A stretch of DNA of 64,000 bases, taken from an uncultured Acidobacteriota bacterium. GTDB lineage: Bacteria > Acidobacteriota > Terriglobia > Acidiferrales > UBA7541. Below, in pieces: positions 8,705 to 46,207 of the stretch. Below the pieces are notes generated by a model, which was not told where the DNA came from, made no database searches, and saw nothing but the letters and a program-made list of their open reading frames with translations. How positions within the stretch are numbered: the stretch's first letter is position 1; each line of letters begins with the position of its first letter. The stretch lies in contig CAVRFZ010000025.1 of NCBI GenBank assembly GCA_963720655.1, positions 24,444 through 88,443 on the forward strand, given 5' to 3'. The position numbers and the translations under genes were made by a program.

Positions 8705-8883
8705 CCGCAGAAAAATTCGGACCGTCATCTGCTCTAGTTTCTGGACGACGGCCGAGCTCCGTATTCGACTCACCCGAATAATCAAACCTCCAAATTTTAA
8801 GGGCCTTTGGCTACGTGGCGCGAACTCTCGTCGTGGGCTAGGGCGTAGCGCACCCGTCCGTTGACACGCAGGCGCGTTGACAT

Positions 8884-10371
8884 GTGGGCGCGTCGCACCT
8901 AGAATCGCGGCCTAAATCGCACAGGCCAGGCTCTGATTCGAGAATTAGTGCGATTCTCGCGGAGCCGCTAATAGCGGAGACAGCCATCACACCCGGTCCG
9001 GGTAGGCCCAAAATAGCGATTGTGGACGACGATGCCGGGTTGCGCGCAAAGATTGCGTCTGCTCTGCGTTCAGATTTTGAAGTTCTCGAAGGCGAGGACT
9101 ACGACGCAGCGGTAAAGTTGCTGGAAGAGCGAGAGTTGGATGTGTTGCTGTTGGGGTTGCCCATCGCGTCCGGCGGCGTGCGGGAGTGCACTGAGTTGTT
9201 GTCAAGGCTGGACGGAAGCAACATCGACACGCTCGTGATCGTGCTGAGTTCCGATGAAAAGAAATCCACCGCGCTGAAGGTCATCGACGCGGGCTCTTAC
9301 GACTACTTCATCAAGCCAATCGACACGGACGTGCTCCGGCACCTGCTCGAGCGCGCAGTCGAGAAGCTGCACATCCAGCGCGAGAACCGGCTGCTGCGCG
9401 AGGAAATCAGCCGGAAGAACGCGCTCGGCGATCTGATCGGGACAACGGACTCGATGCGGCATGTGTTCGACTCAATCAAGCGGATGGCCCGGGCGACGAC
9501 CAACGTGATAATTCGCGGAGAGAGCGGCGTCGGAAAAGAGCTGGTGGCCCGCGCCCTCCACGAGCAGAGCCCGCGGCGAAACCGCGCTTTCATCAGCGTA
9601 AATTGCGCGGCGCTGCCCGAGGGGCTAATGGAGGCTGAGCTTTTTGGGTACGAGAAGGGGGCCTTTACAGGAGCAGTGGGAACGAAAGAAGGCCGCGTGG
9701 AGCTGGCCCATCAGGGAACACTGTTCCTCGATGAGATTGCAACGTTGACGCCACCATTACAGAGCAAGCTACTGCGGGTGCTGGAGGACCGGTCGCTGAC
9801 GAGGTTGGGCGGAAAGAAGCAGATCAAGGTGGATTTCCGGCTAATCAGCGCGACGAACGAGGACCTGGAAGAGATGGTGCGGGACGACCGGTTCCGCGAG
9901 GACCTGTATTACAGGATCCATGTGGTGCCGATTTTCGTGCCCGCGTTGCGCGAACGGGTAGAGGATATCCCTGTGCTGGCGGAGTATTTCGTCAGCGTCT
10001 ATTGCGCGGCCAATAGCTTTCCGGCGAAGCGTATCGCCGACGACGCCATGCAAGCGTTAAAACGCTACCCGTGGCCGGGCAACGTGCGCGAACTGGAGAA
10101 TGCGATTCAGAGGCTGGTGATCATGACGGACGGAGAAACGATTGAGCTCAAGGATCTGCCGATCGACATCATGCAGGTAGTCAGCCGGGACAGGGGACGG
10201 GTTAGGCTGTCGGGAAACGGGATCAATCTGGACAGAGAGATCGAGGCCTTCGAGCGACGGTGGGTGCAGGAAGCATTGGAACAATCGAAACAGGTAAAGT
10301 CAGAGGCGGCACGACTGCTGGGTGTCGATCGGAACCGATTGAACTACCTGTGCCGTAAGTACAGCCTGTGA
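8884..10371 (+). CDS. sigma-54-dependent transcriptional activator (receiver-like domain + AAA+ + Fis-type HTH)
   Basis: Walker A GESGVGKE, sigma-54 contact loop GAFTGA, C-terminal HTH AARLLGVDRNRLNYLCRKY. The receiver-like N-terminus has DVLLLGLP where the phospho-Asp is expected. The start codon is uncertain. Confidence 0.9.
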   Translation: MGASHLESRPKSHRPGSDSRISAILAEPLIAETAITPGPGRPKIAIVDDDAGLRAKIASALRSDFEVLEGEDYDAAVKLLEERELDVLLLGLPIASGGVRECTELLSRLDGSNIDTLVIVLSSDEKKSTALKVIDAGSYDYFIKPIDTDVLRHLLERAVEKLHIQRENRLLREEISRKNALGDLIGTTDSMRHVFDSIKRMARATTNVIIRGESGVGKELVARALHEQSPRRNRAFISVNCAALPEGLMEAELFGYEKGAFTGAVGTKEGRVELAHQGTLFLDEIATLTPPLQSKLLRVLEDRSLTRLGGKKQIKVDFRLISATNEDLEEMVRDDRFREDLYYRIHVVPIFVPALRERVEDIPVLAEYFVSVYCAANSFPAKRIADDAMQALKRYPWPGNVRELENAIQRLVIMTDGETIELKDLPIDIMQVVSRDRGRVRLSGNGINLDREIEAFERRWVQEALEQSKQVKSEAARLLGVDRNRLNYLCRKYSL

Positions 10372-10430
10372 TCCGGGTCTGCTTGCACAGGAGACTGGTA
10401 TCCGTATTTGCACATGGTGAAAAATTCATT

Positions 10431-10450
10431 GGCGTTGAGTAAATCAACAC
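10431..10450 (+). promoter_or_regulatory. candidate enhancer (UAS) inverted repeat GGCGTTGAG-N4-TCAACAC
   Basis: GTTGA-N5-TCAAC palindrome about 100 nt upstream of the -24/-12 promoter at 10543. A related GCGTTGAA/TTCAAC set lies upstream of the second sigma-54 promoter. Confidence 0.35.
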
Positions 10451-10542
10451 GGTAAAGACATTGGGGCAGAAGCAATCCGGGACGCAGAATTCGATCAAAC
10501 ACATTCCACGAGACTTATCGGGCGACTCGAGTCTCGAGGTGA

Positions 10543-10558
10543 TTGGCAACTTGATTGC
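10543..10558 (+). promoter_or_regulatory. sigma-54 (-24/-12) promoter
   Basis: TGGCAACTTGATTGCA matches TGGCAC-N5-TTGCA, with GG and GC exactly 12 nt apart. It lies 52 nt upstream of the peptide-1 ATG. Confidence 0.7.
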
Positions 10559-10609
10559 AAGATAGAAAGCATCGCCCCAGAGGGGCAACTTGAGAGGGAG
10601 AACAAAGAC

Positions 10610-10678
10610 ATGGCAAAGAAAACCTTGAAGAAGTCCAAGAAGCTCGAATCGACCAAGCCGTTGATCAGCCGCGGATAA
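10610..10678 (+). CDS. small Lys-rich peptide 1 (22 aa, MAKKTLKKSKKLESTKPLISRG)
   Basis: A GAGGGAG Shine-Dalgarno sits 9 nt upstream, a sigma-54 promoter lies upstream, and two hairpin terminators follow. It shares the KKLE..K.LI.R motif with two paralogs. The ORF is below the ORF-track size cutoff. Confidence 0.6.
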   Translation: MAKKTLKKSKKLESTKPLISRG

Positions 10679-10738
10679 TTTTTAGGTGCGCCCGAAATAG
10701 TGGCGCACTTTGCGGAGAAGGATTCTTGAAATGAGAAG

Positions 10739-10764
10739 AGGCCGCTCCTAGGAGCGGCCTTTTC
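10739..10764 (+). terminator. rho-independent terminator after peptide 1
   Basis: AGGCCGCTCC-TA-GGAGCGGCCT stem followed by TTTCC. It is preceded by a second hairpin, GTGCGCC-N9-GGCGCAC-TTT, at 10686-10711. Confidence 0.7.
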
Positions 10765-11003
10765 CACGTTAGGGCCAGAAAGTTAAAGGCCAAAGTCAGG
10801 GCAGAAAAATTCTGAAGATCGGCTTCTTGACCGTACCCTGGGCCGATTGGCTCAAGAGTCCGCAGGATCAGACCTGTAAGTGCCAGTATTTTAGTCATTT
10901 AGGAAACGGCACCTCTATGGATTAAGTTGGTTGCGCGTGATTCCGCGGCAGATTAGACTTTCTATCGTAGATGGAGCTCAACTTTTCATAACACGGTGCA
11001 AAA

Positions 11004-11099
11004 ATGAAGTCCAAACCGAAGCCAAAAACCCTTAAGAAGTCGACCAAACTCGAACCCTTGAAATCCCTCATCGTCCGCGCTCCTTGGGCCTCAAAGTAG
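11004..11099 (+). CDS. small Lys-rich peptide 2 (31 aa, MKSKPKPKTLKKSTKLEPLKSLIVRAPWASK)
   Basis: It is a paralog of peptide 1 (TLKKS.KLE..K.LI.R) with synonymous codon differences. An in-frame TAA lies 12 nt upstream of the ATG. The SD is weak (GGTG) and no clear promoter was found. Confidence 0.5.
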   Translation: MKSKPKPKTLKKSTKLEPLKSLIVRAPWASK

Positions 11100-11122
11100 C
11101 GACGGTTCCGTCAACCAGCCAG

Positions 11123-11917
11123 CTATTTACCCCTCTTACGAGCCAAGTACATCGTTCGCAGACCTGTAGATACTCGTCGGTTGCTGGGGGGCGCGGCGAG
11201 ATCGCTAAAATCCAGAACACGAACTAGTTCCAGCCCAGCCTGCCTGAGGTGGCGGATTATATCGGCATGGGGCCACTCGATTTCTTCCAGCAGGTCATCG
11301 TGGCGCTCCCAAAGGTCCTTTCGACCACGAATGAACCAAGTTACTCGATTCCAGCCTTTACCCCTCTTGCGGTCGAATCCGCCGTGCTCGACTGCAAAGA
11401 AATTCGGTCCTTCACCATAATTGGTTATGGACCAGTGCTGTTCGTAAAGGAGCCGCTGGTGCAAATCGAAGTAGAAATAGCCCCCGGGACGAAGCGCGCG
11501 GGCAACGGCCCGGGCAACTTGAGCCAATTGGGAGCGGTTGGGCAGGTGATTTATCACGCCCCATTGCGAGCAAACCAGATCGACTGGCTCGGGAAGGCTG
11601 AAGGTGCGCATGTCCGCCCGCCAGACACGTACGCGGAGCCCCGTCGCGCGCACCTTCCCACGCGTGACGCGGCACATTTGTGGGGATAAATCGACGGCAT
11701 AGACTTTCAGGCCCCGTCGCGCGAAATCAATGGCAGCCGTGCCGCTTCCGCAGCCAAGCTCACACACGCTTTTGACTCCGGGAAGAATCGAACGGAGCAA
11801 TTTTTCCCGGTTGCGAACCCAAGACTTTTCATAGAGAGGCCAGATCTCGTCGTAAACGGGGCCTAGTTCGGCGTAGGTGTTCGGTTTTGGCGCGATCTTT
11901 GTGGATGGGCGGGGCAA
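11123..11917 (-). CDS. class I SAM-dependent methyltransferase
   Basis: Motif I VCELGCGSGTAAIDFA, then acidic D in VYAVDLSP, and motif-IV-like LVCSQWGVINHL. Confidence 0.85.
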   Translation of the reverse strand: MPRPSTKIAPKPNTYAELGPVYDEIWPLYEKSWVRNREKLLRSILPGVKSVCELGCGSGTAAIDFARRGLKVYAVDLSPQMCRVTRGKVRATGLRVRVWRADMRTFSLPEPVDLVCSQWGVINHLPNRSQLAQVARAVARALRPGGYFYFDLHQRLLYEQHWSITNYGEGPNFFAVEHGGFDRKRGKGWNRVTWFIRGRKDLWERHDDLLEEIEWPHADIIRHLRQAGLELVRVLDFSDLAAPPSNRRVSTGLRTMYLARKRGK

Positions 11918-11981
11918 CAGGGCTCCTAAACGAGCGCCCTTTATATCAGGGGAGCGTGATTTTGCCCACCGCTAAAGGGGC

Positions 11982-12028
11982 GGCGTTGAAACGTTGGATT
12001 TTTCAACAACATGAGCAAAATTCAACGC
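11982..12028 (+). promoter_or_regulatory. candidate enhancer (UAS) half-sites GGCGTTGAA / TTCAACAAC / TTCAACGC
   Basis: Inverted GCGTTGAA (11983) and TTCAACGC (12021), plus an internal TTCAAC (12003), lie 85-125 nt upstream of the sigma-54 promoter at 12110. Confidence 0.35.
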
Positions 12029-12109
12029 TTACTGAGCTCAAATCAGAGGGTAGGCGTGCGCCGCCGTGCCTAAGTGGTTTGATTTTAAGCCAGGAGAGGG
12101 AATTGTGTT

Positions 12110-12125
12110 TGGCGCGCGAATTGCA
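12110..12125 (+). promoter_or_regulatory. sigma-54 (-24/-12) promoter
   Basis: TGGCGCGCGAATTGCA has GG and GC exactly 12 nt apart. It lies 53 nt upstream of the peptide-3 ATG, the same geometry as at peptide 1. Confidence 0.7.
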
Positions 12126-12177
12126 CTTGCTCTGAACAAGCCCGGGCAGGGACGAGACCAAGAAAAAGGGACGAATC

Positions 12178-12288
12178 ATGAATCCAACCGCGAAGCCAGT
12201 AAAGAAAAACAAGAAAGTCGAGCCGGCAAAGAAGCTCGAGCGTAAAACACCGCTGATGTCCGTGCGCAGTCTCACGGTGAAGTGGTAG
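12178..12288 (+). CDS. small Lys-rich peptide 3 (36 aa, MNPTAKPVKKNKKVEPAKKLERKTPLMSVRSLTVKW)
   Basis: AAGGGA SD about 8 nt upstream, sigma-54 promoter upstream, two hairpins downstream, and the shared KKLE..K(T)PL motif. Confidence 0.6.
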   Translation: MNPTAKPVKKNKKVEPAKKLERKTPLMSVRSLTVKW

Positions 12289-12372
12289 GGGATTAAGTCG
12301 TCCCGAGATTTTAACGATCTTCCGACCTTGCGCTCCGCTAGGTCGGGAGTTTGAAGTAGCAGCAACCCCGAA

Positions 12373-12406
12373 GGGCCGCCGTCCCAGGAACGGCGGCCCT
12401 TTCTTT
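12373..12406 (+). terminator. rho-independent terminator after peptide 3
   Basis: GGGCCGCCG-loop-CGGCGGCCC stem followed by TTTCTTT. A further hairpin CCGACCT/AGGTCGG lies at about 12333-12357. Confidence 0.7.
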
Positions 12407-12429
12407 GTGACCGCGTCCAATCCCCACAA

Positions 12430-14577
12430 TCACCACCAAACCTGAGAACGCAACCAGTGCCAAGCGCTTCGACTCATCTGCCAGGCCAACGGCCTGCTCT
12501 TCGCTGTAATCTTGGCGACACCGGTCATCCCGGCGCTGAGTGAGCCGTCGGAGTTCGGAAATACCATCACGACGGCGAAGCGGTTAGTCAGTTCCTGCCC
12601 TAGTCGCGTTAGCTTTTGCGTGTCAGAGATGGGCGCATCGGTAGCGGCGGCGGGAAGAATCTGCTCCACATGGCCTGTGTAGGTGCGAAAAGCGTAGGGC
12701 AGAACTTTCACTCTTACAGGAGCACCGGCACGAATGTCGTTCAGATCGCGATCAGAGACGAAAATGCGCGCTTTCATCGTGCGAGCGTCAGAGAGGCGGC
12801 AGAATTCTTCGCCAGCGGCGAGAAACTGGCCGACTCGCTGGCGAATTTCGGAAGTTGTCACGATGCCGTCAAAGGGGGCGCGAATTTGTAGCGCGTCGAG
12901 ATTGGATGTGGCGACGGCGAGTTCTTTCTGAAGACGGATGCGTTCGCGCACGGACTGGGCAGACTTCCCGGATGCAGGCTGGTCCTGATTCTCTCGAAGG
13001 TTGCTGCTAGCCAAGGTGAGTTCGATGGTGGTCTTTCTGGCCTCCGCTTCAATCTCCGGGTTCTGCAGAACGGCGAGGAGTTGACCCGCCTTAACCTCTT
13101 GACCCTGGCGAACGAATACCTCTGAGATTGTTCCGGCAACTGAGGTGCGGAGATGCGCGGCCTTACCGGGCTCGAGGAGGAGTTCGGAGGAGACGCTGGT
13201 GGGGATAGGAGGCACGAATAAGAGCAAAGCGACTCCTAAGACGCCGAAAGTCTGAGCGCGCGTTAATCTCCAGGTCATGTAGGACCCCCCCTGTTTTCGA
13301 ATCCATGCGCGGGCGACAGGCACGGATGATTTGATCCCCTTTCGCGCGAAAAAATAAAGCACACCGGCAAACAAGAAATAGCCCCAGTCTCCGAACTTTG
13401 AGACGAGCACATTCTTCGCGAACAACAGGACCACGGCCAGCAGGGCGGCACTGTAGATGATTGCTGTGACGCCGAAAATGAAGAAGATTCGCCGGTGGCG
13501 GCGGCTGGAAGGAGGAAGATCAATATCCCGGCGAAAAATGTATTTCTGCGCCCAAACGCGCAGGAAAGCGAATGCGTCTTCGCGCAAGTTGTCGATATCG
13601 AGGAACTGCGAGAGGGCGTAATAACCATCGGCTTTGATGAGCGGATTCAGGTTTAAAACAGCGCCCTGTATGCCGCTGAGAAGCATCATCTTGTACGCCA
13701 AGTCACTAACGATAGTGCCGGGTGCGGTGAAGTGCCAGATCACGGCTGAAGTGCTGCAAAGAAGAAGCTCCACCCAGATGCCGGCGAAGATCACCCATTG
13801 GCGGCGTGAAGTGCGATCAAAGAGAAGGATATCTGTGGTGTCGGTATAAAAGGCGGGCGTCAGGTAGATCAGCAAAAACCCCATTTGGTGAACGTCGCCG
13901 CCGAAGTGCTTGCAGGTAAGCCCGTGGCCGAACTCGTGGACTGCGCCGAGCAGCAGAAGCAGGATCCAAAACGCCCACACATCGTAGGCGCTCTTTTCGG
14001 CGAAGGAATAAAGCGATGAAGTGTCGCGCTGCACCCGGCTCCAGTCGCCAGCTACAAAATAGGCCGCCGTGACAAACAGGAGGATGCAAAAAAACACGAA
14101 CTGAGTAGTGTAAATCCAGCTGAGATAAGGATCGAGCTTCGCGAGGGTTTTATTTGGGTCCCAGGCCTTGAAGCTGATGTATAGCATGCTGGACTGGTCG
14201 ACGCGGCCTTTGCGTTCGTCGCGGATGCGTTCAAGAACCGCGAGATTTTTTTCGCCCAGGGACCGTTCCCACATGGCGGGCTCAATTGAATCGAGAAATT
14301 CGAGAACTTCGGATTCCGCGATCGCAGAATCGGGGTCTTGTTCGGCGAGCGCCTCGGATATCTCGGCCGGTGTACGTGTTCCGTCGCACAGCAAAAGCAG
14401 CTGATATTCGAATTCACCGTAACGGTTGTAGGAATTGGTTTCGTAATTCTTGATGACGTAACTCTTTTCGCCATTCACGGTCTGTTCGCTGATGCGCAGA
14501 TCGGAGCGAAGCTTGGGGCGCCGCAATCCTTTGGAGAGGACGCTCGAGACCTGAATACTGGTGGGGCCAAAGCGCAT
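12430..14577 (-). CDS. triple-fusion protein: PqqD-like RRE domain + M50 site-2-protease membrane domain + HlyD-type periplasmic adaptor domain
   Basis: The N-terminus SYVIKNYETNSYNRYGEFEYQLLLLCDGTRTPAEISEALAE...VLEFLDSI is PqqD-like. HEFGHGLTCK (HExxH) and LNLNPLIKADGYY (NxxPxxxxDG) are M50 motifs within a multi-TM block. The C-terminus has a lipoyl-like hairpin (VAGTISEVFVRQGQEVKAGQLLAVL ... IRAPFDGIV). Confidence 0.8.
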   Translation of the reverse strand: MRFGPTSIQVSSVLSKGLRRPKLRSDLRISEQTVNGEKSYVIKNYETNSYNRYGEFEYQLLLLCDGTRTPAEISEALAEQDPDSAIAESEVLEFLDSIEPAMWERSLGEKNLAVLERIRDERKGRVDQSSMLYISFKAWDPNKTLAKLDPYLSWIYTTQFVFFCILLFVTAAYFVAGDWSRVQRDTSSLYSFAEKSAYDVWAFWILLLLLGAVHEFGHGLTCKHFGGDVHQMGFLLIYLTPAFYTDTTDILLFDRTSRRQWVIFAGIWVELLLCSTSAVIWHFTAPGTIVSDLAYKMMLLSGIQGAVLNLNPLIKADGYYALSQFLDIDNLREDAFAFLRVWAQKYIFRRDIDLPPSSRRHRRIFFIFGVTAIIYSAALLAVVLLFAKNVLVSKFGDWGYFLFAGVLYFFARKGIKSSVPVARAWIRKQGGSYMTWRLTRAQTFGVLGVALLLFVPPIPTSVSSELLLEPGKAAHLRTSVAGTISEVFVRQGQEVKAGQLLAVLQNPEIEAEARKTTIELTLASSNLRENQDQPASGKSAQSVRERIRLQKELAVATSNLDALQIRAPFDGIVTTSEIRQRVGQFLAAGEEFCRLSDARTMKARIFVSDRDLNDIRAGAPVRVKVLPYAFRTYTGHVEQILPAAATDAPISDTQKLTRLGQELTNRFAVVMVFPNSDGSLSAGMTGVAKITAKSRPLAWQMSRSAWHWLRSQVWW

Positions 14578-14589
14578 GGGTCGCGGTGC

Positions 14590-15528
14590 CTATGGTTTCG
14601 CTTTTGCAGTGCCCGGCCAAATCACATGTACAGCCATGCCGGGCCGCAAATCGGAAATTCCGGTTCCGACAAGCTGCGCGGTGACGTCGTAGCTGTCACT
14701 TGCGGGATCGACGGTGGGACTAACCTTCACCACGCGGGCTGAAAACGTGCGGCCGGAATTATCGACAAGCGAGAGATCGACGGGCGCGCCACGCTCGGGA
14801 CGCCTGGGGGAAGCTTCGGAAACCTGAAATTGGACCTGAAGGGGCGAAAGCTGGCTGATGCGAAAACACTTGTCATTCTTGGCCACCGTCTGACCTTCAC
14901 GAACATAGCGGCGCACGACGACACCGCTGAATGGGGCGCGCAGTCGGGTTTGGTCCAGTTGAATTTCGAGGCGATGAATTTCCGAATGGCTGCTTTCGAC
15001 CAGGGCTTGCCATCCATGCATATCGTATTCGGCGCCTTTTGCTTCAAACTCGGCGGCTTCCAGATCGGCTTCGCTTGAAAGCCCATATTCACGCAGCTGC
15101 TGTTGGCGTCTTAGAGCCGCGGCTTTGGCCTTGAGCTCGGCCTCTTTGAATTTCACGTTATTCTCGGCAACGGTGAGATCGTTGCGGGCCTTGTTGAGCT
15201 CCATCTGAAGGCTGCGGTCATCGAGCTGCCCTAGAATTTCACCGGCTTTGACGGCGCTGCCTTCGTCTTTCGCGAGGGAGGTGACGACACCGTCGCGCTC
15301 GGCAGAGAGATCCACTTGGTGCTCCACGGAGAGCACGCTGAGAACGTCGTTTGGCTCAGGAGGCTTGACGGTGGCGGTTGGTCCCGGCGGTTGTGACGGT
15401 CGCGAAGGCACGGCCGAAGACGGAGGTGGAGCGGCAGAAGTGGAATCCGGCGCGTGAGAAGAATCGCCACAGCCCGCCAGCGCGAGCGCCAAAGTTACGA
15501 TTGGAAGATACGTTGAACGTCTCATCAT
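14590..15528 (-). CDS. HlyD-family periplasmic adaptor lipoprotein
   Basis: Lipobox LALAGCGD, a Pro/Ser-rich linker, then barrel-sandwich and coiled-coil motifs (AERDGVVTSLAKDEGSAVKAGEILGQLD ... LRAPFSGVVV). Confidence 0.8.
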   Translation of the reverse strand: MMRRSTYLPIVTLALALAGCGDSSHAPDSTSAAPPPSSAVPSRPSQPPGPTATVKPPEPNDVLSVLSVEHQVDLSAERDGVVTSLAKDEGSAVKAGEILGQLDDRSLQMELNKARNDLTVAENNVKFKEAELKAKAAALRRQQQLREYGLSSEADLEAAEFEAKGAEYDMHGWQALVESSHSEIHRLEIQLDQTRLRAPFSGVVVRRYVREGQTVAKNDKCFRISQLSPLQVQFQVSEASPRRPERGAPVDLSLVDNSGRTFSARVVKVSPTVDPASDSYDVTAQLVGTGISDLRPGMAVHVIWPGTAKAKP

Positions 15529-15546
15529 GTCCCCTGCCCCTTCAGC

Positions 15547-17976
15547 TTACGGAAGCCAGCTCCAGACCTTCTGCCAAATCCAGCGAAATGGATCACGAAA
15601 TAGTGCGTAGCCTATCGGGTACCATCCGGTATGGAACCATTCGAGCGGGCCGCCTGCGGCGCGGATGCGAACGCGGCCAACCATTCCGTCGCGAGCGCGC
15701 CCGCCGGAATTCGAAAAGAGAGCGCGTACTAGAAAGTATTGGTCCCCAGCATCGGAATGAGTTTGAGCGCCGATACGATCGACGGTCCCGAAGAATGTTG
15801 CCGTCGGGAAGGCATTGAGCTTAAGGGCGACTTCCTTGCCAGGATGGACGAGGGCCAAATCCGTTTCAGGCACGCTCATTTCGGCGGCCATCCGTTCCTG
15901 GTCGACGATCTCGGCGAACGGATCTCCTGCCTTGACCATCACGCCAGTTTTCTCTTCAATTTTCGGCGTCACAACCACACCAGCAATCGGCGCACGAAGA
16001 TCCGCAGAGGCGACGCGCTGCTGTTCGAGTTTCACTTCGGCAGCATGAAGGTCGGCGCGCATTTTGGCTTGTCCTGCGGCCGATGGATCGTTACGAAATT
16101 CCGCTTCCGCAATTTCACGGCGAGCCTGCGCGAGAGCGGCTTCGGCTTGGGCAAGCTTGATGCGATCTTCGCTGTCGTCAAGCTGGGCAAGAGATTGGCC
16201 CGGCTGCACAGTTTCGCCTTCGCGAACGAAAACGTGCCGCACGACTCCGCCTTCGATCGAGCTAACAATGCGGCGCTCAGCGGGGACCACGGTAGCATCC
16301 GTACGCACGCGCACAGGCCATGGCACCAGAATAAGAATGGCGGCAACAATGGCGGCGCGCTCAGCATATAGGCGCCAGCGCTCCTTCGGCATCGCGGCAG
16401 CCAGGCGCTTTTTCTGTTCGGCAAGCGGCTGGAAAATATTCGCGAGCGGAACCTGCTGATAAAGCTGCGCATTGCGGATTGCAACAGTCGTCTGGTTGGC
16501 GAGAATCGAGACAGTCTCTTTGTTGGCGTCGGTGAGGAAGTCTGCGTCGCTGCTAAGAAGTATCATCGCGCCAAGAACGCCCTGATCGTCGCGCAGCGGC
16601 AAGGCATACGTGCCGTTGAGCTCGTAGGCTTCGAGGTATGAAACGAGCTGCGCGCGAGCATCTTCCGGATCGGCGTGCCAGCCATCGTCGTATTTATCGA
16701 CGGCGACGGGGCCTTCCTGCTGGGATACCCATTCCAGCCGGTCGCGCAGTTCGCTCATCTCGCGCGTTTTTGGAACCTCCGCTTCGCCCGAGACGGCGCC
16801 AAGAACGAATTTACGCCGATCGAAAAAGCCGATGACTAATTTGTCGAACGGAACTACGGAGGCGGCTTGCTGGGCGACAGTGGAAAGAACGTGATCGAGG
16901 TCCAGCGTGGATGTGATTTCCTGCGAAATTTTTAGAAGAGCGTCAAGGGCGTAGACCTTACGTTCGGATTCAAGAAGATTCGCATTGTGCAAGGCGACAG
17001 CAGCCTGCTCGCTGATGCTTTCGAGGAAAAAAAGATCTTCTTCGTTAAAGGGAGTGCCGTCTGCTTTGTTCACCAGCTCGACGATGCCGAGAACCTCGTT
17101 TTCCTTTCGTAGCGGCGCCGCCATCCACGACTCGATCTCGAATTCTCCGCCAGCCTTGATGCGCTCTTCGAGACCCGGTTCTTCCGATGGCGTTTCAAGG
17201 AGCTTCGGATTTCCCGCCTGGGCAATTTCACCGAGCAGCCCTTCGCTCGCGGAAACACTCGCACCTTGCTCCACCGTCGGATCCACTCCTGCGGTATTGG
17301 CCAGACGAAGTTCGTCTCCCGCCGCGAGCCACAGATTGCAGCCCTCAGCTCCGAGAATGTCTTTGATTTTGCCGGCGACGATGGGCAGCAGCTCTTCTAA
17401 CTCGAGTGTGGATGTGAAGGTGCGGCCAAGGTCGTAGAGAGCAGTGAGGCGTTCGAGAGTTGCGAGCTGGGCGTGGCGCTCGCCTTCTATAGCTTCGAGA
17501 TTCGTGAGAGCCTGGCCTGCAAGCCGCGCCGCTTCTTCGAGAAAATGCGCGTCTTGCTCTGTAAAGTTCCCGGCTCTCTTGTTCAGGACCTCGACCACGC
17601 CTTCGGGCCCTTCGACGCCGGGAAGGGAGGCAAACATTGCAGATTTGACGCGGACCCGGCTCGTCTCCTCCAGATGCTCGAGATCATCAAGCGACAGATC
17701 CTGCGCGCTAAGGCGGCTGGTGCTTGCCGACTCAAACACGATGGCGAGAGGACCTTCAGTGACCGGTTCGCTGGAGGGCACAATCCGCTCGCCGGTTTCG
17801 GTCCAGCGCGTACGGCATGCAAGCCCTTCCGATTCAGAATCGTGAATCCACACGAATACGGCGCGCGCTCCGAGCGTGGTGCCCACGCGAGCGGCAAACG
17901 TCTTCAAAAGCGTGTCCTGATCGCGACACGCTAGAGACACGCTCGCGAGTTCGAAGAGCGCCGAAGATGTTTCCAT
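15547..17976 (-). CDS. GAF-domain (about 3 copies) - TM - HlyD-type adaptor fusion protein
   Basis: The start is set at METSSALFEL with a GGGAGA SD. About 520 cytoplasmic residues carry repeated GAF-like units. A single TM (AAIVAAILILVPWPV) follows, then HlyD motifs (IEGGVVRHVFVREGETVQPGQSLAQLD ... LRAPIAGVVV). Confidence 0.8.
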   Translation of the reverse strand: METSSALFELASVSLACRDQDTLLKTFAARVGTTLGARAVFVWIHDSESEGLACRTRWTETGERIVPSSEPVTEGPLAIVFESASTSRLSAQDLSLDDLEHLEETSRVRVKSAMFASLPGVEGPEGVVEVLNKRAGNFTEQDAHFLEEAARLAGQALTNLEAIEGERHAQLATLERLTALYDLGRTFTSTLELEELLPIVAGKIKDILGAEGCNLWLAAGDELRLANTAGVDPTVEQGASVSASEGLLGEIAQAGNPKLLETPSEEPGLEERIKAGGEFEIESWMAAPLRKENEVLGIVELVNKADGTPFNEEDLFFLESISEQAAVALHNANLLESERKVYALDALLKISQEITSTLDLDHVLSTVAQQAASVVPFDKLVIGFFDRRKFVLGAVSGEAEVPKTREMSELRDRLEWVSQQEGPVAVDKYDDGWHADPEDARAQLVSYLEAYELNGTYALPLRDDQGVLGAMILLSSDADFLTDANKETVSILANQTTVAIRNAQLYQQVPLANIFQPLAEQKKRLAAAMPKERWRLYAERAAIVAAILILVPWPVRVRTDATVVPAERRIVSSIEGGVVRHVFVREGETVQPGQSLAQLDDSEDRIKLAQAEAALAQARREIAEAEFRNDPSAAGQAKMRADLHAAEVKLEQQRVASADLRAPIAGVVVTPKIEEKTGVMVKAGDPFAEIVDQERMAAEMSVPETDLALVHPGKEVALKLNAFPTATFFGTVDRIGAQTHSDAGDQYFLVRALFSNSGGRARDGMVGRVRIRAAGGPLEWFHTGWYPIGYALFRDPFRWIWQKVWSWLP

Positions 17977-18183
17977 TGCTCTCCCTGGAGGGGCGTTCTC
18001 ACACCCGCCCCCGCGCCGAGCCCGGAGACCGGGGGAAAGAGAACGCGCGGAGCCTAACAAAAGGGGCTGTAGCGCGTCAAGGAACTGTCCCCTAATGGCC
18101 CCGATAAACAGGACATACGAGAGTGCAAACCCTTGATTGCGGAGCGCAATTCAGTTAGCTTTGCAACTCGCTGTGAGGTACCT

Positions 18184-18519
18184 GTGAATATTGGTATTCG
18201 CAAAGCCGGACAAGCCACGATCCTGGATCTTGAGGGCCCCCTCAAACTTGGTGAGGCGGAAGAGGCATTCCGCAGTCAGATTCAGCAACTGATGGATGCG
18301 GGATCCACTCGCGTTGCCGTGAACCTGGCGGGTGTAACCGAGCTTGATAGCTCGGGAATTGGCGCTCTCGTCCGTTCTTTTACGATGTTGAAGCGGGCGG
18401 GCGGAAAATGCACGTTTTTCGCGCCGAGTAAGCGCGTGATGATGCTGCTGAAAATGGTGCGCCTGGATTCGATATTGGACCTTTCGGAAGACGAAGCCAC
18501 AGCGCTAACGCGCATTTAG
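18184..18519 (+). CDS. STAS-domain protein (anti-sigma-factor-antagonist type)
   Basis: GTG start after GAGG. ILDLEGPL...VAVNLAGVTELDSSGIGALV is the SpoIIAA/RsbV pattern with the conserved Ser. Confidence 0.8.
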   Translation: MNIGIRKAGQATILDLEGPLKLGEAEEAFRSQIQQLMDAGSTRVAVNLAGVTELDSSGIGALVRSFTMLKRAGGKCTFFAPSKRVMMLLKMVRLDSILDLSEDEATALTRI

Positions 18520-44248: not shown

Positions 44249-46207
44249 TTGGATTTCCTGAGGCAGCTTTTCGGCTCGGGCGACTTCCAGCCACACGGCT
44301 TCTGCTATCTCTGGAACGCCCGGCTGGTCTGGCTGCACGCGATCTCAGATCTGCTGATAGGGCTCGCGTATCTTACGATTCCGGTCACGCTCGTCTGGTT
44401 CATTCGCAAACGGCGGGATCTTCCCTTCAGCTGGATCTTCGTCTGCTTCGGAGTATTCATCGTTGCCTGTGGCGCCACGCACGTCTTGGAAGTCTGGAAT
44501 CTCTGGCACGCGAACTATTGGCTCGCCGGCGTGATCAAGGCCATCACAGCGGCTGCCTCCATTCTCACTGCGATCCTTCTGATTCGACTGGTGCCGCAGG
44601 CCCTCGATCTTCCCAGCTCTAAGCAGTGGCTCCTTGCCAACGCCGCGCTTCAGCAGGAGGTGCAAGATCGGCGTGAACTCGAGCTCACTCTCCGCATCAG
44701 CGAGTCGATGTATCGCGAACAGGCCGAACTTCTCGAGCTAACTCACGACGCTATTTTCGTCCGTAGCCTCGAGAAGAAGGTTCTCTACTGGAATCGCGCA
44801 GCCGAGCGGCTCTACGGCTGGCAAAAGGAAGAGGCCCGCGGAAAAATTACTCACGAGCTTCTTCATACTGTTTCCCCGAAACCCTTGGAAGAAATTCAGG
44901 CCGACGTATTTGAAAAAGGTTACTGGGAAGGCGAACTCATTCATACCCGCCGCGATGGAGCGCAAATCACAGTCTCCAGCCGCTGGGCTTTGCGCGTGGA
45001 TGCCAATGGCAAACCGCTTTCCATTCTCGAAAGCAATCGAGATGTTACCCATCGCAAGTTGGAAGAAGCGAAGTTTCGGAATCTTCTCGAATCGGCCCCT
45101 GATGCAATCGTGATCGTCGACGAACACGGCCGCATCGTTCTGACGAATGCCCAAACGGAGAAATTGTTTGGTTATCCGCGTCACGAATTGCTGCACGAGC
45201 CCATCGAAATCCTCATTCCGCCTCGGTTTCATGGCCAGCATGCCGTACATCGCACCAGCTATGCTCATGCGCCTCGCCCTCGGGCTATGGGAGCTGGTTT
45301 GGAACTTTACGGCCGCCGCAAGGACGGCACTGAGTTTCCCGTTGAAGTCAGTCTGAGCCCGCTCGAAACAGAAGAGGGCAAGCTCGTCTCCAGTGCAATC
45401 CGCGATGTTTCTACCCGCAGGCAAGCCGAACAAGAGGTCGAGCTCCGCAGACAGGAATTGGCCCGCTCCAACGCCGATCTAGCCGCCGTCAACCAGGAGC
45501 TCGAAGCCTTCAGTTACTCCGTCTCTCACGATCTGCGCGCTCCCTTGCGCCACATTGATGGGTTCGCCCGCATTTTGAAAGAGGAGCATGCTGCAGAGCT
45601 GTCCGAAGAGGCTCAGCGCTATCTCGAACGCATCCTCCATGGCGCGAATCATATGGGCCAGCTTGTGGATGACCTCCTGAATCTCGCCAAGGTCGGAAGA
45701 AAAGAGCTGGTCCGCCAAAGAACGAAGCTCGACGTGCTTGTTCGGGAGACGCTTGCCGACTTGCCTGAAACGGAAAACCGTGCCGTTGAGTGGCGCGTTG
45801 AACCGTTGCCGGAAGTTGACTGCGACCCCGGCTTGCTCAAATTAGTCTTCAACAATCTTCTTGGCAATGCCCTCAAATTTACGCGCGGCCGCCAGCCCGC
45901 CGTGATCGAAATCGGCACACTCGACTCCGCTGAGATGACCACAATTTTTGTCCGCGACAATGGTGTGGGCTTCGATCCCAAGTATGCCGATAAACTTTTT
46001 GGAGTCTTCCAACGCCTTCATCGCCAAGAAGACTTCGAGGGCACAGGCATCGGCCTGGCTACCGTTCAGCGAATTATTCGCAGGCACGGTGGCGAAGTTT
46101 GGGCCGAATCTGAACTGGATCGTGGCGCCACATTCTGTTTCTCGCTCGGCGGTCGGTCATCAGCCGCACGCGAGCCCCGGCCTGTGGAGGTGAGTGACCG
46201 TGCCTGA
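44249..46207 (+). CDS. histidine kinase with N-terminal ETR1-like ethylene-binding domain (EBD), two PAS, HisKA, HATPase
   Basis: TTG start. ISDLLIGLAYLTIPVTLVWFIRKRRDLPFSWIFVCFGVFIVACGATHVLEVWNLW aligns with Arabidopsis ETR1 [52 protein letters not shown]. H-box VSHDLRAPLRHI. Confidence 0.85.
   Translation: MDFLRQLFGSGDFQPHGFCYLWNARLVWLHAISDLLIGLAYLTIPVTLVWFIRKRRDLPFSWIFVCFGVFIVACGATHVLEVWNLWHANYWLAGVIKAITAAASILTAILLIRLVPQALDLPSSKQWLLANAALQQEVQDRRELELTLRISESMYREQAELLELTHDAIFVRSLEKKVLYWNRAAERLYGWQKEEARGKITHELLHTVSPKPLEEIQADVFEKGYWEGELIHTRRDGAQITVSSRWALRVDANGKPLSILESNRDVTHRKLEEAKFRNLLESAPDAIVIVDEHGRIVLTNAQTEKLFGYPRHELLHEPIEILIPPRFHGQHAVHRTSYAHAPRPRAMGAGLELYGRRKDGTEFPVEVSLSPLETEEGKLVSSAIRDVSTRRQAEQEVELRRQELARSNADLAAVNQELEAFSYSVSHDLRAPLRHIDGFARILKEEHAAELSEEAQRYLERILHGANHMGQLVDDLLNLAKVGRKELVRQRTKLDVLVRETLADLPETENRAVEWRVEPLPEVDCDPGLLKLVFNNLLGNALKFTRGRQPAVIEIGTLDSAEMTTIFVRDNGVGFDPKYADKLFGVFQRLHRQEDFEGTGIGLATVQRIIRRHGGEVWAESELDRGATFCFSLGGRSSAAREPRPVEVSDRA

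Follow-up and report, generated by a model that had tools for sequence, protein, structure and literature searches.

Conserved putative enhancer dyads and predicted sigma-54 promoters upstream of small peptide genes in soil Acidobacteriota

What switches on the small peptide genes that lie beside the gene for a transcriptional activator in an uncultured acidobacterium? The genes are located in a stretch of 64,000 nucleotides (nt) of contig CAVRFZ010000025.1 (assembly GCA_963720655.1, positions 24,444 to 88,443 of the forward strand), the whole of which we call the window. The host genome, which belongs to the Acidobacteriota, has a GC content of 57%, and its closest public relatives are metagenome-assembled genomes labelled Candidatus Acidiferrales. 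An initial annotation had interpreted two elements as sigma-54 promoters tied, through upstream repeats, to an adjacent gene for a bacterial enhancer-binding protein (bEBP). Our analysis supports this interpretation, as the promoters and dyad repeats are conserved in 75 loci and a bEBP with an intact GAFTGA loop adjoins them. Very probably, the genes pep1 and pep3 have enhancer-dependent sigma-54 promoters that are activated by the adjacent bEBP, which is a standard mechanism. The features on which this reading is built are the following, where ORF stands for open reading frame and site centres are counted from the T of TGGC.

8986–10371, plus strand: bEBP gene, encoding a degenerate receiver, an AAA+ sigma-54 activation domain and a Fis-type helix-turn-helix (HTH), recognized by Pfam matches, GAFTGA and Walker A
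10414–10432, no strand assigned: enhancer site A of promoter 1, degenerate dyad GGTGA-AAAAT-TCATT (core 10416–10430), 17.2 bits, centre at -121
10432–10450, no strand assigned: enhancer site B of promoter 1, perfect dyad GTTGA-GTAAA-TCAAC (core 10434–10448), 22.3 bits, centre at -103
10544–10559, plus strand: predicted sigma-54 (-24/-12) promoter 1, TGGCAACTTGATTGCA, core match, 17.1 bits with the family matrix, predicted start near 10570
10610–10678, plus strand: pep1 (MAKKTLKKSKKLESTKPLISRG), preceded by GAGGGAG, with orthologues in most loci
11983–11990, no strand assigned: extra half-site GCGTTGAA, located 8 nt upstream of the dyad, with nothing to pair with at the dyad spacing
11991–12009, no strand assigned: enhancer site A of promoter 3, GTTGG-ATTTT-TCAAC (core 11993–12007), 20.9 bits, centre at -110
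12012–12026, no strand assigned: enhancer site B of promoter 3, with only a good right half (TCAAC, 12022–12026), whole site below 3 bits
12110–12125, plus strand: predicted sigma-54 (-24/-12) promoter 3, TGGCGCGCGAATTGCA, core match, 26.1 bits with the family matrix, predicted start near 12136
12178–12288, plus strand: pep3 (MNPTAKPVKKNKKVEPAKKLERKTPLMSVRSLTVKW), an ORF whose exact protein is in public collections

Both promoter elements place GG and GC 12 nt apart (10 bp between), the identical geometry that had been noted in the initial annotation, and each has a single mismatch to TGGCAC-N5-TTGCW. The position given there for promoter 3 was right, but promoter 1 had been placed one nucleotide too early, at 10543–10558. 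Likewise, the last base of TTGCA in promoter 3 is 53 nt from the A of the ATG (12178), as annotated, but for promoter 1 (ATG at 10610) the distance is 51 nt rather than 52. In the 64-kb window, the core TGGC-N7-TTGCW matches three times on both strands, versus 1.34 expected from shuffles. The third match (9738–9753, minus strand) lies inside the activator coding sequence without a nearby dyad, and we consider it to be due to chance. The probability that a match occurs by chance in both 25-nt intervals upstream of the pep1 and pep3 start codons is approximately 4e-8, given the base composition. A promoter matrix of 24 nt, built from other genomes only with the window excluded, ranks promoter 3 first (26.1 bits) and promoter 1 second (17.1 bits) in the window. 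The next-best matrix match (45008–45023, minus strand, 15.0 bits) is located within a gene, has no dyad nearby, and is also regarded as a chance match.

Are these elements conserved? As a comparison set we used 80 related loci (L001–L080) from GTDB species representatives, fetched via a membrane protease of the M50 type that is fused to an HlyD adaptor (M50-HlyD) and is encoded downstream of the peptide genes; 558 relatives exist in total, and the M50-HlyD proteins of the 80 loci are 61–98% identical. Approximately 76 of the 80 retain the gene order bEBP, a gap of 0.25–5 kb, M50-HlyD, HlyD and GAF-HlyD. We searched the gaps on the peptide strand for TGGC-N7-TTGC, with GG and GC fixed and at most one core mismatch, followed by a small lysine-rich (K-rich) ORF. 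This yielded 142 elements before K-rich peptide ORFs in 75 syntenic Acidobacteriota loci, with a modal distance of 50–51 nt between element and ORF. Positions that the filter did not constrain are conserved as well: the two bases before TGGC are T in 104 of 140 and 123 of 140 sequences, and A directly follows TTGC in 132 of 140. Promoter 1 is identical in L001, and its position is kept in the orthologues.

An element is present 20–110 nt upstream of 134 of 183 peptide-like ORFs, versus 54 of 1540 random positions (3.5%). The other 49 of the 183 have no strict -24/-12 element, so some of these genes are expressed differently or are co-transcribed. We also observed a second peptide class (e.g., MEKKSKPVKGKKTAPVKPLMKRADLPAVKPLIKF) without a strict -24/-12 element; it occurs in L020–L068 at about 9400–9760 of the reverse-complemented loci (window orientation).

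If the promoters depend on sigma-54, sites for an activator are expected upstream, at a usual distance of 100–150 bp for bEBPs (PMC7057263). The initial annotation had listed inverted repeats in this region, and all are present where it placed them (GGCGTTGAGTAAATCAACAC at 10431–10450, GGCGTTGAA at 11982–11990, TTCAACAAC at 12002–12010 and TTCAACGC at 12021–12028). Its assertion that they lie at the usual enhancer distance is borne out by dyads centred approximately 103–122 nt upstream of the -24 element, inside the range of about 80–150 bp that is characteristic of upstream activating sequences. Its pairing of the repeats fared less well. At promoter 1 the dyad was correctly assigned, but a second, degenerate dyad at 10416–10430 had been overlooked; at promoter 3 the pairing was wrong, as the real dyad is 11993–12007 and GGCGTTGAA contains the unpaired extra half-site.

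We scanned the window with a palindromic dyad matrix of 19 nt that was trained on other genomes without the window. The three top scores in the 64 kb (22.3, 20.9 and 17.2 bits) belong to the sites preceding promoters 1 and 3, while the fourth-best site has 13.9 bits and approximately two sites of at least 12 bits are expected by chance. The full dyad therefore stands out in the window, but the GCGTTGA heptamer that had been emphasized along with TCAAC is not enriched by itself (13 found versus 14.9 expected). The two sites of promoter 1 match the modes of the family, site A that at -122 and site B that at -103. Site A of promoter 3 falls in a minor cluster of the family (-115 to -109), about one helical turn off the main mode, and the TCAAC-to-TCAAC spacing at this promoter is 19, which is the family mode.

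Across the related loci the same dyad was recovered. In the 250 nt before each of the 142 promoters, no hexamer is as strongly enriched as GTTGAA/TTCAAC, which 126 of 142 regions contain versus 17.6 expected from random locus segments. In 67 cases the distance from the start of GTTGA to the start of TCAAC is 10 nt, corresponding to a 15-bp dyad GTTGAA-N3-TTCAAC, and a second TCAAC comes after the first at a distance of 19 nt in 48 cases and of 20 nt in 20. The aligned upstream sequences approximate cGTTGAAattyTCAACrggcgrTGAttaaTTCAACgc. Conservation of the repeats in orthologous loci, whose absence the initial annotation had named in advance as grounds for refutation, is widespread: 138 of the 142 promoters in the 75 loci have a dyad site of at least 10 bits within -200 to -40, and 118 have a second dyad site 18–21 bp from the first. 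The centres of the best sites cluster at -122 ± 2 and -103 ± 2, with a minor cluster near -112, approximately one helical turn away. Of the 317 sites of at least 12 bits in 1.66 Mb of loci, 211 precede a peptide promoter by 40–200 nt; among the strong ones left over, most are upstream of further promoters that the peptide filter had missed.

One sub-clade (L030, L047, L064 and L071–L073) carries a strong dyad match (TTGTTGATTATTTCAACGA, 21–23.5 bits) inside the GAF-HlyD gene, at about 14615 of the reverse-complemented loci (window orientation). It has no promoter nearby, and is not present in the window.

Do dyad and promoter together mark peptide genes elsewhere? We scanned JGI metagenome contigs for GTTGAA-N3-TTCAAC followed after 95–125 nt by TGGC-N7-TTGCA, ignoring coding content. 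There are at least 125 matches in at least 120 stretches, and 95 of the 125 matches listed have a small K-rich ORF of the peptide family 29–72 nt downstream. At least three more of the listed matches (L104, L152 and L164) are family members that are cut by a contig end or by the 100-nt read-out; most of the other listed matches are plausibly chance occurrences unrelated to the peptide family. Since most blind matches listed precede family ORFs, the composite signature of dyad and promoter is close to diagnostic for the peptide family, which suggests that the activator regulon consists essentially of the peptide genes. In three related AT-rich contigs (L129, L159 and L194) the pattern is followed by a different ORF that is not lysine-rich (MNTVKKTASGLRVIPTGE..). 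These could be either chance matches or another sigma-54 target in another lineage.

The scan also bears on the simplest alternative, that the matches and repeats in the window arose by chance. Two of the counts given above would fit it, the unenriched heptamer and the three core matches, whose excess over 1.34 is not significant alone. The joint placement of the elements before both genes, the top ranks that the matrices built without the window assign to these sites, the conservation of the arrangement in 75 genomes and its blind recovery from metagenomes all speak against it. The comparative and blind tests refute the idea, and we assign it next to no probability.

Which protein would bind the dyads? 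The adjacent gene encodes a protein with matches to Sigma54_activat (PF00158, 2e-69), Response_reg (1.6e-13) and HTH_8 (5e-6), and an AAA lid is also present. The GAFTGA loop is intact (9658), Walker A reads GESGVGKE (9517), and Walker B (FLDEI) is found in the alignment with NtrC1 of Aquifex, which is the closest solved structure (3.6e-82). An AAA+ sigma-54 interaction domain, GAFTGA and a C-terminal HTH are the features of a bEBP, and no second protein of this kind is encoded in the 64-kb window. In approximately 75 loci its gene is directly upstream of the first enhancer, often with 30 nt or fewer between the stop codon and the enhancer. Across 76 loci, the recognition region of the HTH (GVDRNRLNYLCRKY) shows at least 90% invariance.

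The receiver domain is degenerate. NtrC1 VVLLDLLLP aligns with LDVLLLGLP (window 9140–9175, around LDVLLLGLPIASGG), and the acceptor Asp is thereby replaced by Gly. Among homologues, 27 have Gly here and 11 have Ala; none has Asp. Judged from these alignments, the domain is a conserved pseudo-receiver. With Gly or Ala at the acceptor position in the whole family, the activating signal cannot be classical phosphorylation. No histidine kinase was found among the conserved neighbouring genes that were domain-scanned; the acceptor Asp of an NtrC-type response regulator is missing, and so, among these genes, is a cognate kinase.

Several of our observations weigh against activation of these promoters by the adjacent bEBP. 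The pseudo-receiver leaves the mode of activator switching without a phospho-acceptor. Promoter 1 has TGGCAA instead of TGGCAC/GC and its 17.1 bits fall below the family median of 23.7, while promoter 3 is preceded by just one good dyad. In L025 the enhancer and promoter are present and the adjacent activator gene is absent. Finally, an rpoN gene was not found in the 64-kb window; we assume that the genome contains one because a bEBP is present.

The case of L025, together with a degenerate receiver that makes the regulatory logic of the activator hard to read, could mean that, with the promoters being real, a different regulator occupies the dyads, for instance a second bEBP or a repressor whose gene lies elsewhere. 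Against this, the activator gene and first enhancer are contiguous in approximately 75 loci, and the recognition region of the HTH is near-invariant, as is the half-site. In addition, the dyads lie at the usual bEBP distance with helical-turn phasing (PMC7057263), and no other bEBP is encoded in the window. We regard a different regulator as unlikely, and favour the adjacent bEBP.

How the activator gene and the peptide genes are transcribed is indicated by four further features.

8877–8905, plus strand: predicted promoter of sigma-70 type for the activator gene, TTGACA-17-TAGAAT, agreeing with the consensus at 11 of 12 positions
10735–10764, plus strand: predicted intrinsic terminator after pep1, 15-nt arms (93% complementary) followed by TTTTCC
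11004–11099, plus strand: pep2 (..IVRAPWASK), an ORF of the same family as pep1 and pep3
12371–12401, plus strand: predicted intrinsic terminator after pep3, 15-nt arms (93% complementary) followed by CTTTCTTTG

Essentially all related loci carry the sequence cGTTGACA-N17-TAGAAT, in near-invariant form, before the activator gene. The activator ORF is open from 8884, where there is a GTG, but this codon is excluded as the start because it lies inside the sigma-70-type promoter. An in-frame ATC at 8986 follows a conserved GGAGA-N5 and is likely to be a non-canonical start; a start at this position fits both the conserved GGAGA-N5-ATC and the tblastn spans of 462–466 amino acids. Neither matrix found a sigma-54 promoter or dyad upstream of the activator gene. 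The -35 region does carry an enhancer-like half-site (cGTTGAc), with a second GTTGAC 16 bp upstream (8860) in the window and its closest relatives, and these half-sites could serve in autoregulation.

From the observed motifs, their geometry and conservation, and the domain content we infer binding by the activator, dependence on RpoN and the positions of the start sites. The activator would be made from its own sigma-70-type promoter, and its dimers would bind two 15-bp GTTGAA-N3-TTCAAC dyads 19–20 bp apart. The dyads, approximately 103–122 nt upstream of the -24 element, would be at roughly -129 and -148 from the predicted start. The bound activator would oligomerize and loop to the closed complex of RNA polymerase and sigma-54 at TGGC-N7-TTGCA, where ATP hydrolysis via the GAFTGA loop would open the promoter, as in the general looping mechanism of sigma-54 and bEBPs (PMC7057263). 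The predicted product is a short single-gene transcript of approximately 110–270 nt, with a 5' untranslated region (UTR) of approximately 40 nt, a ribosome-binding site, an ORF for a lysine-rich, leader-like precursor peptide, and an intrinsic terminator.

Consistent with such transcripts, pep1 and pep3 appear to be separate single-gene units, because each has a strong hairpin and a T-rich run downstream. The terminators also bear on whether TGGC-N7-TTGCA is a promoter at all. It might instead be a protein-binding or RNA-level element in a longer transcript, for example one reading through from the activator gene, which lies upstream on the same strand. However, a terminator and a convergent gene separate promoter 3 from the activator gene, and the element matches the sigma-54 consensus in both sequence and exact spacing. 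Furthermore, it is always located 45–60 nt before a peptide ATG and approximately 100–125 nt after the dyads, and no Rfam family matches the region (a search of 10300–12450 gave nothing but sub-threshold matches on the terminator hairpin). An element of this kind is exceedingly improbable, and a sigma-54 promoter remains the preferred assignment.

We folded the 5' regions with ViennaRNA. In many predicted peptide mRNAs of L001–L080 the 5' UTR contains a short hairpin, GCCC(C)-loop-(G)GGGC, a few nucleotides after the predicted start, in which the stem is kept and the loop is free to vary. In the window the hairpin is at 10574–10586, with a weaker one at about 12141–12151. It may be a stabilizing stem-loop or a binding site.

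Are the small ORFs translated? The homologous pep1 and pep3 have 22 and 36 codons, respectively, and the peptides of the family share a conserved basic N-terminal part (..KK.LKK.KKLE.TKPL) and have variable C-terminal tails. Public collections contain pep3 only as 'hypothetical protein', while pep1 and pep2 were not called, and none of the three peptides matched a family in NCBIfam. Short length, the absence of two of three from protein collections and the lack of an NCBIfam family are also what would be seen if real promoters produced small RNAs from untranslated ORFs. However, KK.LKK.KKLE.TKPL is conserved while third codon positions vary; the summed variability in pep1 is far greater at third positions than at second (13.5 versus 1.4 bits), in a test that is partly biased by the selection of sequences. 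A Shine-Dalgarno-like GGGAG/GGAGG is conserved 6–10 nt before the peptide ATG. The tails vary as in precursors, and the genes are syntenic with a protease and export operon. We find the small-RNA explanation very unlikely and treat the ORFs as peptide genes.

The initial annotation was correct that pep2 lacks a comparable promoter. Upstream of 11004 the best score with the promoter matrix is -3.5 bits, and there is no dyad of at least 8 bits. Orthologues of pep2 with an R[AST]PW-type sequence in the near clade (L002–L012 and L077) are likewise without a sigma-54 promoter or dyad, while more distant orthologues, those in L053 and L016, each come with a promoter and dyads of their own. In several relatives, TAGAAT or TAAAAT is found 6 nt before the ATG of pep2-type genes, which suggests that these genes have a leaderless sigma-70 transcript. 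Only a weak TTGCGC-17-TAGACT (10931–10959) is present upstream of pep2 in the window.

The peptide genes are accompanied by the following neighbours.

11123–11917, minus strand: methyltransferase gene between pep2 and pep3, weak match to daptide-type methyltransferases of peptides made on ribosomes and modified after translation (RiPPs)
12430–18060, minus strand: operon convergent to the peptide genes (M50-HlyD, HlyD, and three GAF domains with HlyD), recognized by Pfam and NCBIfam matches
12430–14577, minus strand: M50-type HExxH membrane protease fused to an HlyD adaptor (HEFGH, NLNPLIKADG)
14590–15528, minus strand: HlyD protein, by domain match
15547–18060, minus strand: protein with three GAF domains and HlyD, by domain match
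18133–18519, plus strand: STAS-domain protein gene, divergent from the GAF-HlyD gene, by domain scan and synteny

On the basis of synteny, the operon is likely to be the processing and export machinery for the peptides, which would probably, or at least plausibly, be bound, cleaved and exported by the M50-protease and HlyD proteins. Residues 61–103 of M50-HlyD have a weak match resembling PqqD and the RiPP recognition element (RRE). Upstream of the operon the best sigma-54 promoter score is -5.2 bits, and no enhancer was found. Among the adjacent genes examined we noticed neither an ATP-binding cassette or resistance-nodulation-division pump nor an outer-membrane channel, which makes the export architecture unusual. 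The methyltransferase gene is present in some of the related loci only, on either strand, and looks like an accessory tailoring gene. The STAS gene is syntenic in most of the related loci, and partner switching is a conceivable role for its product, as a regulator linked to the system.

What would the locus as a whole do? A tentative possibility is that it is an undescribed peptide system, widespread in soil Acidobacteriota, in which a pseudo-receiver bEBP drives genes for a variable set of very short precursors via sigma-54 independently of phosphorylation, and a fused machine of RRE-like domain, M50 protease and HlyD trims and exports the products. Such a system might be quorum-sensing-like peptide signalling or a new RiPP-like class. 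If true, it would be unusual in itself that genes for peptide signals or RiPP precursors are controlled by sigma-54. In the searchable literature we came across no account of the locus or the peptide family, nor of the GTTGAA dyad or of peptides like these being under sigma-54 control; a candidate paper on TMcins proved unrelated.

Whatever the peptides do, the analysis provides a precise and testable model of gene regulation in a soil lineage that is common although uncultured, comprising promoter, enhancer motif, spacing and candidate activator, with a bEBP regulon that appears to be made up of small peptide genes only. The composite signature finds tiny genes that gene callers mostly miss, with approximately three quarters of the blind matches listed belonging to the family. 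It could be used for cataloguing the peptide family and for designing heterologous expression with activator and RpoN, by which the mature products might be identified.

How does this arrangement compare with known systems? The activator is not an orthologue of NtrC, PrsR, AtoC or ZraR according to the curated models, all of which score below their cut-offs, those for NtrC in NCBIfam far below; its receiver also lacks the phospho-acceptor. The switch works like NtrC at glnAp2, the textbook sigma-54 enhancer of enteric bacteria, with a GG-N10-GC promoter, two tandem dyad sites more than 100 bp upstream, and the same architecture of receiver, AAA+ domain with GAFTGA and Fis-type HTH. The NtrC sites also overlap glnAp1, resembling the half-site in the sigma-70-type -35 region of the activator described here. 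In contrast, the NtrC half-site is of the TGCACC type rather than GTTGAA, its targets belong to nitrogen metabolism rather than being small peptide genes, and in our locus the acceptor Asp is absent and there is no kinase.

Among named bEBP families the best score is for PrsR, the PEP-CTERM-box regulator (TIGR02915), at 429.3 bits, which is below the equivalog cut-off of 502.6. The PrsR system places sigma-54-type control on many genes for short secreted or sorted proteins in environmental bacteria. However, PrsK kinase, exosortase and PEP-CTERM motif are not present in our locus, and its peptides are lysine-rich and only 20–50 amino acids long. FleQ, which is among the structural relatives, is similar in having an N-terminal receiver fold that works without phosphorylation, a likeness that is otherwise general to bEBPs. 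It responds to cyclic di-GMP and FleN and controls flagellar and biofilm genes, in contrast to the activator here, whose locus gives no sign of those inputs.

The peptide side loosely resembles RiPP and peptide-pheromone loci (daptide MpaP, and YydH/LiaK of epipeptides), which likewise have tandem precursors with a conserved N-terminal part and variable tails. The best NCBIfam match of the M50-like protease is the daptide intramembrane metalloprotease (3.9e-54, 184.2 versus a cut-off of 300), and its match to YydH/LiaK is weaker (1.1e-13). The methyltransferase scores 59.9 against the daptide methyltransferase cut-off of 175. With all of these matches below the NCBIfam cut-offs the locus does not qualify as a daptide RiPP system, and unlike daptide and YydF-YydH loci it has no daptide or radical-SAM tailoring genes. 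We found no report of sigma-54 or bEBP control of RiPP or pheromone loci of this sort in the literature searched. A further difference is that here the protease is fused to HlyD and is accompanied by two HlyD proteins, one of which has three GAF domains. Compared with these systems the switch is conventional, the enhancer motif and regulon are new, and the peptide-export locus under its control looks undescribed; since the mechanism is textbook, what makes the case of interest is the regulon, the pseudo-receiver activator and the locus, not the switch as such.

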